Assembly: GCF_018986915.1 (NCBI RefSeq)
Contig: NZ_CP076723.1
Coordinates: 644,631-676,630 of the forward strand
DNA: 32,000 bases
Source of the DNA: Geomonas oryzisoli
Lineage (GTDB): Bacteria > Desulfobacterota > Desulfuromonadia > Geobacterales > Geobacteraceae
Direction of reading: 5' to 3'
Every line of letters begins with the position of its first letter. Position 1 is the first letter of the stretch. The notes beneath the pieces are model-generated. The model did not search any database, was not told the DNA's origin, and saw only the letters and a program-made list of their open reading frames with translations. Made by a program: the position numbers and the translations under genes. Below are positions 20,229-24,591 of the stretch, one piece after another.

Positions 20229-20415
20229 CTAACGCAAAGGCGCGGAGCCGCAGAGACGCAGGGGAAGGCGAATCGAAGTCTTGCGGGTTTTCCCTCTAAA
20301 GCTTTTCTTAGCGCCTTTGCGGCTTGGCGTCTTTGCGTTAAAGCCTTTTCCTTTTGTGTGGTTTTTGGTTTTTGCCGTAAGGGTTTCTTAGTGTCTCTGC
20401 GGCTTTGCGTTAATA
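20229..20415. repeat. Three copies of the NCGCNNAG-octamer REP-like element (one forward, two reverse)
   Basis: Forward copy 20232-20263 = ACGCAAAG GCGCGGAG CCGCAGAG ACGCAGGG. Reverse copy 20307-20338 = CTTAGCGC CTTTGCGG CTTGGCGT CTTTGCGT. Reverse copy 20387-20410 = CTTAGTGT CTCTGCGG CTTTGCGT. This is the same family as 9419-9578. Confidence 0.75.
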
Positions 20416-20947: not shown

Positions 20948-20994
20948 CTCCCCTCTCCCTCCGGGAGAGGGTGGCCGAAGGCCGGGTGAGGGCG
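20948..20994. repeat. Single variant copy of the G/C-rich palindromic element
   Basis: CTCCCCTCTCCCTCCGGGAGAGGGTGGCCGAAGGCCGGGTGAGGGCG. It has a CCCTCTCCC..GGGAGAGGG hairpin followed by a GGTGAGGG tail. Confidence 0.55.
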
Positions 20995-21090
20995 CTGCCA
21001 CGAAGATAACCATTCCCTCAGCCGGGCTCTCATTCCTTTTTTGCATGACCTTATCTTTATCCTAATCTGAATTTTGAGCCTGGAGGAATC

Positions 21091-21963
21091 ATGGAAAAGT
21101 TGAAGCTCGGCATCCCGAAGGGGAGCCTTGAAAACGCCACCGTCGACCTGTTCAAGAAAGCCGGCTGGCAGATATCGATCTCGTCACGCAGCTACTTCCC
21201 CGGTATCGACGACGATGAGATAAAGTGCTCCCTGATCCGTCCGCAGGAGATGGGCAAGTACGTCGAGCGCGGCACCATCGACGTCGGCATCGCCGGCCGC
21301 GACTGGATCCGCGAGAACGAGTCCGACGTCATCGAAGTCTGCGAGATGGTCTACTCCAAAGTTTCCCGCCGCCCGGCCCGCTGGGTGCTGGTGGTGAACG
21401 GCAATTCCAAGATCCAGGGCCCCGAAGACCTGCATGGCGCCACCATCTCCACCGAACTGGTCGGCTTCACCAAGCGCTACTTCGCCGAGCGGAACATCCC
21501 GGTCAACGTCGAGTTCTCCTGGGGCGCCACCGAGGCGAAGGTGGTCGAAGGGCTGTGCGACGCCATCGTCGAAGTTACCGAGACCGGTTCCACCATCAAG
21601 GCCAACGGTCTGAAGATCATCACCGAGTTGATGGAGTCCGTCCCTGTCATGGTCGTCAACAAGGCTGCGTGGGAAGATCCCTGGAAGCGCGCCAAGATCG
21701 AGCAGATCGCGACCCTGTTGCAGTCCTCTCTGAGGGCCGAGGGGATGGTTGGTCTCAAGATGAACGCGCCGAAAGAGAAAGTGGCCGAAATCACCGCCGT
21801 CATCCCGAGTCTGAAGAGCCCGACCGTCGCCAACCATTATAATTCCGACTGGGTTTCCATCGAGAGCATCATGCCCGAGCAGGAAGTCCGCCGCATCGTC
21901 CCCGAGCTCATCAAACTCGGCGCCGAAGGCATCGTGGAGTATTCGCTCAATAAGATCATTTAG
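21091..21963 (+). CDS. hisG: ATP phosphoribosyltransferase, long form (with C-terminal regulatory domain)
   Basis: 290 aa starting [26 protein letters not shown], with the catalytic region [10 protein letters not shown]. The HisG_C-like C-terminus is present, so no HisZ is required. A GGAGGA RBS precedes the start. Confidence 0.93.
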
Positions 21964-21983
21964 CCACAGAAGTCCCTGCTAAA

Positions 21984-22022
21984 GAAAATGCCCGGTCCAC
22001 TTCATGTGTGGCCGGGCATTTT
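21984..22022. terminator. Bidirectional terminator hairpin after hisG
   Basis: AAAATGCCCGG(T)CCAC / GTGGCCGGGCATTTT stem with one bulge. A-rich upstream and TTTT downstream. Confidence 0.7.
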
Positions 22023-22044
22023 GTGCGCTGCACACCATGTCGGG

Positions 22045-22238
22045 TCACGAATGGTTGCGCACCAGCCTGATCTCCAATTTGCAATCGACGGCGGCGGCAT
22101 ACTTGCGGAGCATCTCCAGAGAGGGCGAATGGCGGTGTGAGCCAAGTGAACCTTCCACTCTTGCCAGCGAAGGCTGGGAAATCCCATCCTGTTCGCCACT
22201 TCTTCATGCGTCAATCCTGCCTGCTTTCCTGTCGACAT
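22045..22238 (-). pseudogene. Frameshifted, N-terminally short XRE-family HTH gene remnant (antitoxin-like)
   Basis: On the minus strand, one frame reads MSTGKQAGLTHEEVANRMG. A second frame then continues ISQPSLARVEGSLGSHRHSPSLEMLRKYAAAVDCKLEIRLVRNHS* (stop at 22045-22047). Joined together they form a canonical HTH_XRE helix 2 and 3 plus tail. The join at ...AGGATGGGATTTCCC... requires a 1-nt frameshift. A TAA lies 3 codons upstream of the ATG and there is no clear RBS. Confidence 0.55.
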
Positions 22239-22259
22239 TCCATATTATGCCCAAGGGGG

Positions 22260-22905
22260 GCAATCGACGGCGCTGCCGATTTATTGCAGGGGCAGGAGAT
22301 TGAATCGAAGGTGCTGCGGATTTGCTGCCGGGGCTGGAGATTGAATCGACGGTGCTGGTGATTTATCGCCGGGGCTGGAGATTGAATCGACGGTGCTGGT
22401 GATTTATCGCCGAGGCTGGAGATTGAACCGACAGCGCTGAGGATTTATCGCCGGGGCTGGAGATTGAATCGACGGCGCTGACGATTTATCGCCGGGGCTG
22501 GAGGTTGAATCGACGGCGCTGACGATTTATCGCCGGGGCTGGAGGTTGAATCGACGGCGCTGCCGATTTATCGCCGAGGCTGGAGATTGAATCGACGGCG
22601 CTGGCGATTTATCGCCGAGGCTGGAGATTGAATCGGCGGCGCTGGCGATTTATCGCCGAGGCTGGAGATTGAATCGACGGTGCTGCGGATTTATTGCCGA
22701 GGCTGGAGATTGAATCGACGGTGCTGGGGATTTATTGCCGAGACTGGAGGTTGAATCGACGGCGCTGCCGATTATCGCCGAGGCTGGAGGTTGAATCGAC
22801 GGCGCAGCCGATTTATCGCCGCGGCTGGAGATTGAATCGATGGCGCTGACGATTAATCGGCGAGGCTGGAGATTGAATCGACGGCGCTGACGATTCATCG
22901 CCGAG
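22260..22905. repeat. Tandem array of about 16 head-to-tail copies of a 41-bp unit (consensus TGAATCGACGGCGCTGNNGATTTATCGCCGRGGCTGGAGAT); there are no spacers
   Basis: The TGAATCG landmark occurs at 22301, 22342, 22383, 22424, 22465, 22506, 22547, 22588, 22629, 22670, 22711, 22752, 22792, 22833 and 22874. All steps are 41 bp except one of 40 bp. A degenerate unit begins at about 22260. Confidence 0.95.
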
Positions 22906-22992
22906 ACCCAACATGCAATAGACAATGCTCACGCAGTCGAGGTGGGGGAGGGAGACAAAGGAGACTGTTGCGTGGGGGGGCTGGCGGGAAGT

Positions 22993-23020
22993 GCGGCTGC
23001 GGCACTGAAGCCGCAGCCGC
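22993..23020 (-). terminator. Perfect 11-bp hairpin 13 nt downstream of the 216-aa gene (possible terminator, no U-tract)
   Basis: GCGGCTGCGGC / GCCGCAGCCGC with a 6-nt loop. There is no T-run on either strand, so its terminator function is uncertain. Confidence 0.35.
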
Positions 23021-23032
23021 GTACGTTAATGA

Positions 23033-23683
23033 TCAGCTCAAGACGATATCGGTGACCGCAGACCACGGCCCGTAGCCTGTGTTGTTGTGGTACCTGACCC
23101 TGATGTAGTACCGTTTCACCAGATCAAGTTTCAACTCTATCTTGCACAGGTAGGATCTCTCCACGCTTGTCCAAGAGGCTTCATCGCTCGGATTTTCCGT
23201 GTACTGAGCCTCAATGCTCCCCATTCCCGCAATTTTACTGACGATAATCCAGAAGATACCGGAGCCTTTCGGACCGGGTCTCAGGTCGACTTTGTCCGGC
23301 TGGCCAGGAAGGGTGCTGCTGGCCGGTTTGGCAGGATAGGTCCGGTGGCTTAACTGGTAGCCTATATCCATCAGCGATGGGTCTTTTTCGTGCGTTGCCA
23401 CCATTACTGAGTGCTGGCAGGCGAAAATAAAGGCGGTGATGATTTCGTCGCGGGTGTTGTCTCTTTCTTCGGCTTTGAGTTTGTCGCCGTACCGCGCTGC
23501 TTCCGACGTTATCCCCAGTTTCGTTGCCAATTCGGTGAGGCGGTCGGGCCCGGGGACATGCTTCTGCAGGTCCTGGAAAGCGCGATGGGCTCTTATGCGC
23601 TCGGCAAACCTCAACGTTTCCTGAATCAGATCACCATCCGATAACTTCGTTAGCTCTGAAATGTCGTGCTTTGGAACCAGCAT
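23033..23683 (-). CDS. Hypothetical protein: helical N-terminal half and a beta-rich FN3-like C-terminal domain
   Basis: 216 aa. GGAGG lies 6 nt upstream of the ATG. The C-terminus YYIRVRYHNNTGYGPWSAVTDIVLS resembles the last strands of fibronectin type III domains. GC content is lower than in neighbouring genes. I recognise no family for the N-terminal half. Confidence 0.68.
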   Translation of the reverse strand: MLVPKHDISELTKLSDGDLIQETLRFAERIRAHRAFQDLQKHVPGPDRLTELATKLGITSEAARYGDKLKAEERDNTRDEIITAFIFACQHSVMVATHEKDPSLMDIGYQLSHRTYPAKPASSTLPGQPDKVDLRPGPKGSGIFWIIVSKIAGMGSIEAQYTENPSDEASWTSVERSYLCKIELKLDLVKRYYIRVRYHNNTGYGPWSAVTDIVLS

Positions 23684-23723
23684 AGGCGGCCTCCATGCGT
23701 TGGCGTTTATACATATGGCAAGT

Positions 23724-23751
23724 ATTATTAAAATAAATTAAAAAATGTCAA
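23724..23751 (-). promoter_or_regulatory. Candidate sigma70-type promoter of the 216-aa gene, in an AT-rich tract
   Basis: On the minus strand: TTGACA (complement of 23746-23751), 16-nt spacer, AATAAT (complement of 23724-23729). It lies about 40 nt upstream of the ATG. Confidence 0.45.
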
Positions 23752-23789
23752 GATTCGAGGTGCGTTTTATTCTGCTCCCGAACATTTCG

Positions 23790-23836
23790 CCGGCCGACTT
23801 GAGGTGGGGATGGATCTGGCGATTTATCGCCGAGAC
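23790..23836. repeat. Solitary, partly degenerate copy of the 41-bp array unit, including the array's terminal junction sequence
   Basis: CTGGCGATTTATCGCCGAGACC (23807-23828) matches CTGACGATTCATCGCCGAGACC (22887-22908) at 20 of 22 positions. Both are followed by ..AACAT. The upstream part, TTGAGGTGGGGATGGAT, only weakly resembles the unit. Confidence 0.7.
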
Positions 23837-23886
23837 CGTTAACATATCAGGTGAGCTGCGCAGATTAAAACGGAAGGAGGCGGGCT

Positions 23887-24327
23887 ATGACCAACACTAT
23901 CATTCTTCATCGCGTTTTTCGAGCGGCACCCGAGAAGATCTATCGAGCATTCCTTGACCCGGACGCCCTGGTGAAGTGGCTGCCGCCGAACGGATTCACC
24001 GCAAAGGTCCATCAGATGGACGCAAAGGTCGGTGGGACCTACAAGATGTCGTTCACCAATTTCTCCACGGGGCAGACCCATTCCTTCGGAGGCACCTACT
24101 TGGAACTGGTGCCGCACGAACGGATACGCTACACGGACGCTTTCGACGATCCGAATCTATCTGGAGAGATACAGACGACGACAACTCTGCGCCGGGTGTC
24201 GTGCGGAACTGAATTGAAGATCGTGCAGGAGGGTGTTCCTGAAGCCATTCCTGCCGAAGCTTGCTATCTCGGCTGGCAGGAGTCGCTGGCCCTGCTGAAG
24301 ATGCTTGTTGAGGCGGATGTTTCTTAA
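23887..24327 (+). CDS. SRPBCC-superfamily protein (AHSA1/Aha1-like domain)
   Basis: 146 aa. The pattern is typical of this domain: ILHRVFRAAPEKIYRAFLDPDALVKWLPP ... GGTYKMSF ... GGTYLELVPHERIRYT. A GGAAGGAGG RBS is present. Confidence 0.88.
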   Translation: MTNTIILHRVFRAAPEKIYRAFLDPDALVKWLPPNGFTAKVHQMDAKVGGTYKMSFTNFSTGQTHSFGGTYLELVPHERIRYTDAFDDPNLSGEIQTTTTLRRVSCGTELKIVQEGVPEAIPAEACYLGWQESLALLKMLVEADVS

Positions 24328-24390
24328 CGCATGAGAGGGGAGGGGGCGGTAGCCGCGCCATGCCGGCTGCCGCCCCGCCACAAGGTGTGA

Positions 24391-24591
24391 CTATCTTCTT
24401 CTTTCGTGTGCCTTCTTCCCGTGCACCCGCTCGTAGGCGCGGCAGAAGGGGCAGACGTCTTCCTCGATGCGGGTGACGAAGTCGTAGACGAGCCCCTTCT
24501 GATGATAACGGGCATGAAGGCATACCGGACAGAGCTCGCAAACGGTTGCCATGGCTTTGTCCAGTGCGGTCGGTTTCTCGGTGGGTGGCAT
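24391..24591 (-). CDS. Small Cys-rich (putative zinc-ribbon) hypothetical protein
   Basis: 66 aa from the ATG at 24591 (AAGGAAG lies 5 nt upstream). Two Cys pairs are present, CELCPVC and CPFC, with a basic C-terminal tail. It lies 45 nt downstream of qor on the same strand. Confidence 0.5.
   Translation of the reverse strand: MPPTEKPTALDKAMATVCELCPVCLHARYHQKGLVYDFVTRIEEDVCPFCRAYERVHGKKAHERRR

Follow-up and report, generated by a model that had tools for sequence, protein, structure and literature searches.

The subject of this analysis is a gene for a protein of 216 amino acids, here called p216, which lies between hisG and a gene of the SRPBCC/AHSA1 family in a 32,000-nucleotide (32-kb) stretch of the Geomonas oryzisoli chromosome (positions 644631-676630 of a single-contig 4.85-Mb genome, 61.8% GC). 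We refer to this whole stretch as the window. The p216 gene is followed by a tandem array of 41-bp units, and a solitary, decayed unit of the same kind lies on its other side, in the intergenic region between the divergent p216 and SRPBCC genes (Table 1). A preliminary description of this DNA, made from the sequence alone, held that the gene is a lower-GC cassette bracketed by direct copies of the terminal junction of the array. The comparisons below lead to a different account, in which the p216 gene and the 41-bp array are one co-inherited, two-part module. That gene and 3' array travel as such a module, and that the solitary copy is a relic of array turnover, is together the best explanation of the locus, and we consider it probable.

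Table 1. Features of the hisG-SRPBCC interval and its borders (positions in the window)
Feature	Position	Strand	Basis and remarks
hisG (long form)	21091-21963	+	Pfam HisG and HisG_C; conserved left border of the variable slot
Putative decayed XRE helix-turn-helix (HTH) antitoxin remnant	22002-22238	-	Our reading of the sequence; frameshifted, N-terminus missing
Tandem array, 41-bp unit	22262-22908	.	3' of the p216 gene; Tandem Repeats Finder, units in register
Copy 1 of the direct repeat	22880-22914	.	Last, truncated unit of the array, ending ...GAGACC, with CAACAT tail
11-bp GC-rich hairpin	22993-23020	-	Repeat search; just past the p216 stop codon, no U-run
p216 gene, 216 aa	23033-23683	-	Translation; N-domain ~residues 1-110, C-terminal FN3 domain
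Predicted sigma-70-like promoter of p216	23724-23751	-	Consensus scan, 11/12 matches; TTGACA, 16 nt, AATAAT
Copy 2 of the direct repeat (solitary decayed array unit)	23796-23845	.	Intergenic, between divergent p216 and SRPBCC genes
SRPBCC/AHSA1-family gene	23887-24327	+	Pfam PF08327; slot cargo
Conserved block with small Cys4 open reading frame	24391-24591	-	Right slot border; homology to other examined genomes restarts here

Tandem Repeats Finder (TRF) reports 15.7 copies of the 41-bp unit with ~90% matches at 22262-22905, and unit-derived sequence extends to 22908. Set in register, the array consists of 14 full units and a truncated last unit that ends ...CGCCGAGACC at 22908, at a point where the internal units go on as ...GAGGCTGGA. 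It starts 125 bp past the p216 stop codon. Each unit has two weak dyad-like centres ~20.5 bp apart, and, by per-column variability, the triplet at unit positions 19-21 is hypervariable. The array unit has a 10-nt match in the 3' coding sequence of the neighbouring HTH remnant, which was judged to be due to chance (~0.16 expected, by our own estimate).

p216 is a member of a family of small cytoplasmic proteins that share a novel helical N-terminal domain (N-domain), with or without a fibronectin type III (FN3) domain, and that occur in Geomonas and two sister genera. With a single sequence as query, family members were found in 22/23 genomes of the genus and in 0/17 genomes outside it. A profile search found 7-15 copies in each of 19/19 Geomonas genomes, 18 and 2 copies in two further genera of the same taxonomic family, and none in 40 other genomes of that family or in 89 genomes from the other families of the order. 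In the source genome there are 13 full-length members, together with about six shorter genes for the N-domain only; p216 matches the family hidden Markov model with an E value of 6e-78. Its relatives are annotated only as hypothetical or FN3-domain proteins of Geomonas species.

Several lines of evidence tie this family to tandem arrays. First, the closest homologues of p216 come from G. paludis, G. anaerohicana, G. azotofigens, G. edaphica and a 'Geobacter sp.' metagenome-assembled genome (MAG), none of them near hisG/SRPBCC. A 41-bp tandem array nevertheless lies immediately 3' of each of these genes except that of the MAG (56% identity), where TRF detected none; the same arrangement is found at a paralogue of 37% identity in the genome G009. 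Second, among 40 further loci from 20 genomes TRF detected arrays at 24, all of them downstream (80-380 bp) and none upstream, with periods of 20-21, 40-42, 61, 80, 102-104 or 120 bp. Third, autocorrelation at 48 Geomonas loci gave a self-identity of at least 0.6 downstream in 27/48 and upstream in 0/48, at lags that were all multiples of ~20.5 (20/21, 40-42, 60, 80, 102-104 and 122-123). Such periodicity is present within 1 kb downstream of 9/13 full-length members in the source genome; a tenth has an array of 82-bp period ~1.4 kb downstream, and one family member has its array upstream. The genes that encode only the N-domain also precede arrays (21 bp x 20, 43 bp x 14, 21 bp x 24 and 42 bp x 6.6), and in G108, a genome of another genus, 10/14 members adjoin an array with a period of 21, 42, 84 or 126 bp. 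Over the family as a whole the periods are 20/21, 41-43, 82, 104 and 123-126 bp, and the arrays typically lie ~80-380 bp from the gene. The array periods are thus multiples of ~20.5 bp, that is, of two turns of the DNA helix, and p216, an N-domain homologue with an adjoining 41-bp x 15.7 array, is one such gene-linked module.

This association is far beyond that of other genes in the same genome. An array of the relevant period class lies within 700 bp downstream of 8/11 family genes, compared with 42/3128 other genes (odds ratio ~200, Fisher p = 4e-13). Clustering of the neighbouring open reading frames (ORFs) at 54 loci, over ~1.5-3 kb on each side, yielded no conserved partner gene, and the only recurrent neighbours were generic sensor histidine kinases. 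Therefore, the module consists of one gene and one array.

The sequence of the array is specific to the paralogue and conserved among orthologues, and the pairing persists through relocation. The mean local alignment score between arrays rises from ~7 where the proteins are <50% identical to 14 at 50-70% and 38 at >70%. In the p216 orthologues the arrays have a 41-bp period and agree with the p216 array in register at 27/41 positions, with the conserved core CTCCAGC.T..G.GATAAAT in the sense of the gene, and in a cross-genus pair with 68% protein identity the core can still be recognised. The promoter region and the gene-array spacer do not align between orthologues, with the exception of the GC-rich hairpin after the stop codon. 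This hairpin, which in p216 has a predicted RNA folding energy of -29.2 kcal/mol (z = -4.3), is kept in all orthologous modules, the same stem being seen in the loci L056-L059 and L075. In four sister species the p216 orthologue is found in another slot; the source genome (4.334-4.339 Mb) has a different paralogue there, accompanied by a 20/41-bp array of its own. The arrays of these orthologues most resemble (74-77%) an orphan 41/82-bp array at genome positions 85161-85660, which has no family gene within 1.3 kb; they are closer to it than to the array of p216 itself. The closest relative of p216 (79% identity) is encoded on Logan metagenome contigs (L075) beside the same qor and SRPBCC genes, with a 1094-aa CARDB gene in between; an array of the same type follows the gene, and the contig ends inside it. 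These observations run counter to the idea, implicit in the preliminary description, that the gene alone is the mobile unit, since its orthologues and paralogues at other loci carry arrays of their own and those of the orthologues are homologous.

In the orthologue slot (L002-L006) copies of a composite element flank the module of array and gene on either side (592-653 and 2277-2338 in L004; 793-817 and 3002-3064 in L003). This element is built from three ACGCAAAG octamers followed by three AGGGATAAA nonamers, and its octamer part also occurs in the window at 20229-20415. It may be a substrate for recombination.

Linkage as such does not imply function, and the arrays might simply be minisatellites, homogenised by slippage in a genome prone to 21-bp repeats and hitch-hiking with duplicated or moved genes. 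The source genome does contain many arrays with periods of 21 or 41-43 bp, about half of them without a family gene nearby, and relics and orphan arrays are common. Unit identity is ~90% within an array and ~66-77% between species, and the arrays thus undergo concerted evolution. Intergenic direct repeats of 6-42 nt are likewise on record for Geobacter bemidjiensis (PMC2996986). However, the linkage holds between paralogues whose proteins are only 23-40% identical and whose array sequences are unrelated, and it must therefore reflect either long retention or repeated birth of arrays at the same place. Furthermore, array cores can be aligned between orthologues at which spacer and promoter region cannot, and the enrichment beside family genes is ~200-fold. 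We consider it rather unlikely that the arrays are without function.

The AlphaFold2 model of p216 (12 homologues, mean pLDDT 87) comprises a three-helix N-terminal domain (~residues 9-105) that is joined by a disordered linker to a beta sandwich starting at residue ~132. The sandwich is an FN3 domain: the top Foldseek matches are all FN3 (E 1e-6, TMt ~0.7 against single domains), a profile search of the Protein Data Bank (PDB) retrieves FN3 domains of titin (E 3e-6) and gp130, and the family matches the FN3 repeats of large proteins. The C-terminal ~100 residues of p216 are, in fold and in profile, a seven-strand sandwich that fits this class. Bacterial FN3 domains are usually found in secreted enzymes and adhesins. 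p216 differs from these in that it is small, has no signal peptide, and has its FN3 domain fused to an uncharacterised helical domain. Modelled alone, the N-domain retains a pLDDT of 85, and Foldseek gave no match with E < 0.8 in the PDB or BFVD; searches with p216 and its halves against Pfam, NCBIfam, PHROGs and PADLOC gave nothing beyond weak FN3-like matches. The two parts differ in charge, with family medians of the isoelectric point of 5.9 for the acidic N part and 9.4 for the basic FN3 part.

We tentatively propose that the protein uses its N-domain to recognise, as DNA, the units of the array beside it, and that it coats one face of the helix. According to this proposal the N-domain would bind the repeated units, successive molecules would occupy the same face along the array in the manner of a centromere- or iteron-binding protein, the FN3 domain would serve as an interaction surface, and orphan arrays of the same type might be bound in trans. 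We regard this as possible, at less than even odds. The units of L052 contain a perfect 16-bp palindrome, and dyads of 14-19 bp are found in several other arrays.

A number of observations weigh against the account as a whole. The N-domain is acidic and, by Pfam, NCBIfam, PHROG and Foldseek searches, has no HTH, ribbon-helix-helix or winged-helix fold and no structural analogue. The gene-array linkage could also reflect co-mobilisation instead of function. Dyads had been considered as a universal feature of the units; they are only enriched (8/36 arrays at p <= 0.05 against shuffles), and many units have none. In G108 five arrays lie upstream of the gene and five downstream, the side being constant within each subfamily. 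Several arrays stand apart from any family gene, and arrays are missing beside a few of the genes. Finally, the common truncation point and AACAT tail of the two repeat copies described below would require a duplication of the array end, and the relic model names no such event.

Recognition could instead take place at the level of RNA. The array would then be transcribed by read-through from the gene (or from upstream, in the G108 subfamilies), and the repeat RNA would bind the protein or be processed by it, following the logic of a type III toxin-antitoxin pair or of an RNA scaffold. Read-through would be possible, since no U-run accompanies the hairpin that follows the stop codon; in Geomonas, 27 of the 48 loci have the array downstream of the gene and none has it upstream; the sense strand is mildly richer in A than in T (31 arrays versus 8); and three units fold better than shuffled sequence. 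This fold is better on the antisense strand (z = -4.9) than on the sense strand (z = -2.7), however, and many dyads are loop-less. The fold of the protein resembles neither ToxN nor CptN nor any known RNase, and copy numbers of up to 50 together with periods that follow the helical repeat (20.5n, including 41, 43 and 82) suit phasing on DNA better. The sign of the GC skew is also inconsistent: a rut-like, C-rich sense strand was considered and rejected, as array GC skew relative to gene direction has no consistent sign. An RNA-level module is in our view unlikely.

We turn now to the repeat that first drew attention to the locus. The preliminary description placed the terminal array copy at 22887-22908, with a ...CAACAT tail reaching 22914, and this agrees with our analysis. 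Its second copy is real, but the position (23807-23836) and the spacing (920 bp) were 9 bp off: the copy lies at 23816-23837, at a distance of 929 bp. The two match at 20/22 positions and have an AACAT tail in common, as it reported, and it was also right that their shared ending ...GAGACC differs from that of the internal units, which there have ...GAGGCTGG. A repeat search extends the pair to 29 nt at 83% identity (24/29; 22880-22908 versus 23809-23837). The well-kept half of the solitary copy, which agrees with the array consensus at 19/19 positions, is followed by a GTTAACAT tail to 23845. A profile of the array units aligns a whole decayed 41-bp unit at 23796-23836 (nhmmer E 1e-3), and this is the sole plus-strand match outside the array in the window. 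The preliminary description also proposed a search for the 22-bp junction elsewhere; outside the array, with at most 3 mismatches, it occurs only at this site in the 4.85-Mb genome.

The claim that the junction itself was duplicated stands in part. Both copies are truncated at the same point, and AACAT follows at an offset of 1 nt in one and 3 nt in the other; by our own estimate the chance of the former is ~1 in 41 and that of the pentamer ~3 in 1000. Given the same truncation point and the AACAT pentamer, the two repeat ends probably have a common origin, although these 5-6 shared bases are suggestive and do not amount to proof. Beyond the AACAT tail the flanks are unrelated (local alignment p = 0.9), and a duplication reaching further was rejected on that ground. 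A GAGGTGGGG 9-mer shared by the 3' spacer and the decayed half-unit was judged by eye to be within chance. Plausible routes to the shared ending would be the remains of a tandem pair of modules, a circle of gene and array that integrated by recombination between array units, or a template switch.

Comparison with sister species is informative about the age of the solitary copy. In G. anaerohicana the homology to the window restarts at 23798 (L009, from ~4391), close to the start of the decayed unit at 23796; the well-kept half matches at 20/22 positions and ends GAGGCC followed by GTTAACAT, and the homology runs on into the SRPBCC gene. In G. paludis only the ~47-bp unit region is common (L010, 4334-4380), and other genes follow. 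The homology to G002 and G004 begins at 23792-23798, about at the start of the whole-unit match. The solitary copy is thus one whole decayed unit at the edge of the slot, common to two sister species. Both of these species lack p216 and lack an array at this site, and ~20 bp on the p216 side of the copy are also kept in G. anaerohicana and partly in G. paludis. The unit would accordingly appear either to have been at the slot edge already in the common ancestor of the three lineages or to have been left there after a replacement.

These data bear directly on the proposal that a foreign cassette, made up of no more than the gene with its promoter and hairpin, was inserted at the array end and duplicated ~28 bp of junction as a target site or att core. 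This would explain why two direct copies of the same truncated unit end, each with its AACAT tail, lie on either side of the gene, and it agrees with a locus that is a variable slot and with the presence of the gene's orthologues elsewhere in four sister species. However, since the solitary unit and the 20 bp inside it are kept in species without p216, this was no simple gene insertion, and the repeat is not the simple target duplication that had been suggested; in both of these species other genes fill the rest of the interval. In addition, array and gene are co-inherited in the family with homologous arrays across loci, codon usage and third-position GC are ordinary (see below), and the closest relative, L075, has no such bracket. 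No integrase, recombinase or transposase was found among the slot ORFs scanned with Pfam (part of the slot ORFs) or among the neighbours of family genes. Among the relatives whose slot we examined, none has an empty site, that is, one with the gene absent, a single repeat copy present and both outer flanks kept. Insertion of the gene alone is in our judgement improbable. Of the broader acquisition or duplication reading, the shared origin of the repeat ends, the variable slot and the species-specific content between hisG and SRPBCC hold good, and the gene-alone cassette does not.

The solitary copy could alternatively be a working operator, bound by p216 and regulating the promoter of p216, of SRPBCC or of both, with the array as a titrating reservoir. 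Its position is suitable: it lies 64-86 bp upstream of the predicted -35 box of p216 (~55-85 bp in the preliminary description, which was close) and ~50 bp upstream of the SRPBCC start. The exact consensus match of its well-kept half and its retention upstream of the SRPBCC gene in G. anaerohicana also fit. Comparative support for an operator-like role is nevertheless lacking. When 41 modules were tested for an upstream match to their own unit, this locus alone was strongly significant (z = 9.3; the next-highest scores were 3.3, 2.5, 2.1 and 2.1), and such a copy is not a trait of the family. L075 has no upstream copy of its own type. The copy is not better conserved in G. anaerohicana than the intergenic DNA around it (85% over 1.9 kb), and the p216-type array of that species has a different unit. 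We consider an operator about as doubtful as insertion of the gene alone.

We infer instead that the solitary copy is a relic of array turnover, for example of a truncated earlier array or of a tandem module, and not an operator or a scar left by insertion of the gene. We favour this because the match covers a whole unit, because no upstream copy is found elsewhere in the family, because L075 has a relic of its own, and because orphan arrays exist, including ones of the a type and the c type. The relic in L075 consists of two units of a different array type, that of the G010 slot, just upstream of the promoter. Partial units of this kind are common debris of module turnover in the slot. The bracketing repeat is real; it is a secondary, locus-specific relic.

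The base composition of the gene calls for a similar distinction. The hand-counted GC content of four 60-nt blocks in the preliminary description was accurate (computed values 0.60, 0.42, 0.55 and 0.52), and the gene is indeed low in GC (53.9%, the 4.6th percentile of ~2750 proxy genes). The suggested check of GC and codon deviation gives no sign of a foreign origin, however. The GC content at third codon positions (GC3) is 66%, at the 38th percentile, and in synonymous usage the gene ranks at the 15th percentile overall, or at the 31st when set against ORFs of similar length. The core gene hisI (52.2%) and the SRPBCC gene (55.3%) are equally low. Because GC3 and codon usage are ordinary and these neighbours are as low, the low GC does not set p216 apart; the synonymous codon usage expected to deviate in a foreign low-GC cassette does not do so here. 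All 12 p216 paralogues in the genome have 53-60% GC, and the low GC reflects the amino-acid composition of the family, not recent import. A bracketing repeat and low GC are together insufficient to call a cassette foreign.

The surroundings of the module vary from species to species. On the left the slot is bounded by hisG, with a nucleotide identity of 82-93% across the genus, and on the right by the Cys4 ORF block (80-87%). The interval between hisG and this Zn-ribbon block is, as judged from the sequences compared, a slot with different modules and other cargo in each species. In G001 it contains an intact HTH antitoxin, an unrelated 42-bp x 10 array and a family gene for the N-domain only, in the same order and orientation as here; G014 is similar, with a Gp49-type toxin in addition. 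G003 has a family gene with a 41-bp x 10.5 array that abuts hisG, G015 has another family member with a 41-bp array in the opposite orientation, and G010 has only an orphan 41-bp x 11 array. In G. anaerohicana and G. paludis a 203-aa family member directly follows hisG, and a 973-996-aa gene with no assigned function comes next. The locus is recombination-prone and variable.

The HTH remnant of the source genome has full-length homologues at the equivalent place in G001 and G014. In G014 the homologue adjoins a Gp49/HigB-type toxin, and the pair of toxin and XRE antitoxin is intact (L013, 1641-2289). The remnant is probably the decayed antitoxin of such a pair; the toxin gene and the N-terminus of the antitoxin are gone, and the array begins 22 bp from the ATG of the remnant. 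The SRPBCC gene is shared by the source genome, G. anaerohicana and the metagenomic relative L075. Near it lie a 996-aa gene in G. anaerohicana (L009, 1383-4373), with only a sub-threshold AbiV-like match (E 0.003), and the 1094-aa CARDB-domain gene in L075 (1356-4640). Homology between these two was considered and rejected, as they have no similarity. The slot also carries varied cargo other than modules.

Some further repeats were noted. Between hisI and hisG (window 20949-21005) lies a dispersed ~55-bp repeat that recurs at tens of sites, with 90-100% identity, in each of the Geomonas genomes searched, an element of the genus that resembles repetitive extragenic palindromes (REPs) or miniature inverted-repeat transposable elements (MITEs). 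An Rfam scan of 21500-24500 gave only sub-threshold chance matches. Elsewhere in the genome, two 21-bp arrays of 24 and 50 copies (820407-820903 and 4781094-4782136) have a common unit, and only the 820407 array has a family gene, of the N-domain-only kind, upstream. The 4781094 array follows a dCTP-deaminase-like ORF (from a reading of its translation only) and is a candidate for binding in trans. An orphan array of the p216-array type (41 bp x 4.2, 75-79% identity; L077, 3085-3255) lies at an unrelated locus of G018 with no family gene within 3 kb. The genome also has a 312-bp repeat of 17.9 copies at 100% identity (3191625-3197224), presumably the repeat region of a giant surface protein, and scattered REP-like arrays built on AAAGCAGTTACGCAAAG with periods of 126-395 bp.

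In a wider picture, to which we give somewhat less credence than to array recognition itself and which is rather speculative, the family would form a set of exchangeable modules, a dozen or more per genome, that are swapped between fixed slots, each protein recognising its own array and building a nucleoprotein assembly on it. Such paralogue-specific assemblies would serve the organisation or marking of the chromosome or the discrimination of self from non-self. Geomonas belongs to a clade of metal-reducing soil bacteria with abundant 21/41-bp tandem arrays, and ~11 of the 26 large arrays in the source genome are tied to one uncharacterised protein family. The paralogue-specific pairing is kept across species and three genera and turns anonymous repeats into a testable system of protein plus repeat. 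If the proteins bind the arrays, they would offer a new DNA-recognition domain with ready-made orthogonal pairs of protein and site, and would add an example of gene-linked repeats to those of CRISPR, iterons, centromeres and type III toxin-antitoxin systems.

Repeats of this kind have been seen before in the same bacterial family. In Geobacter bemidjiensis, intergenic 'direct repeats of 6 to 42 nucleotides' and unexplained 'multicopy sequences' were reported (PMC2996986), and its main text makes no link between the repeats and a gene family. More generally, Geobacter genome papers describe abundant intergenic direct repeats of 6-42 nt without a gene link (PMC2996986, PMC2700814), and our full-text searches of the literature, including these papers, found no description of a link between gene and array. 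As non-coding, homogenised intergenic arrays of which the source genome also has orphans, the arrays described here resemble minisatellites or variable-number tandem repeats. They differ from them in being tied to one protein family and in their 20.5n period.

Among systems in which repeats and proteins are paired, the closest parallels are the centromeres and iterons of plasmids. Examples are sopC of F, with twelve 43-bp repeats bound by SopB, and parC with ParR; iteron blocks flank repE or repA in F and P1. As in these systems, head-to-tail repeats phased by whole helical turns lie beside a single gene for a small protein, the unit spans ~2 or 4 helical turns, many units have dyad-like cores, and the repeat sequence is specific to each paralogue. 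In contrast, the modules described here are chromosomal, with ~13-19 per genome, and among the 54 loci no ParA, ParM or Rep partner and no origin was seen. The acidic three-helix domain with FN3 is also a fold unlike ParB, ParR, ParG or Rep, and the proposed binding of the array is likened to theirs by analogy. In the type III toxin-antitoxin systems ToxIN, CptIN and TenpIN the repeats precede the toxin gene in 2-6 copies. The likeness lies in one protein gene with a tandem array of 20-45-nt units and a hairpin between them; in Geomonas, however, the arrays follow the gene instead of preceding it and reach 16-50 copies, and p216 is not a ToxN-like RNase and has no PADLOC match. REPs are dispersed genome-wide, and the associated tyrosine transposases (RAYTs) are HUH enzymes. 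REP/REPIN-RAYT systems and the present family have in common that each paralogue lies beside its own family of repeat sequences, but here, apart from rare orphans and relics, the repeat is confined to one array, and the protein is devoid of enzyme-like motifs. A CRISPR array has unique spacers between its repeats; here the whole 41-bp unit repeats with ~90% matches. With CRISPR, type III toxin-antitoxin, partition and iteron, REP/RAYT and integron-cassette systems the module shares only that a gene is tied to its own repeats, and we rate the module family as a new kind of feature.

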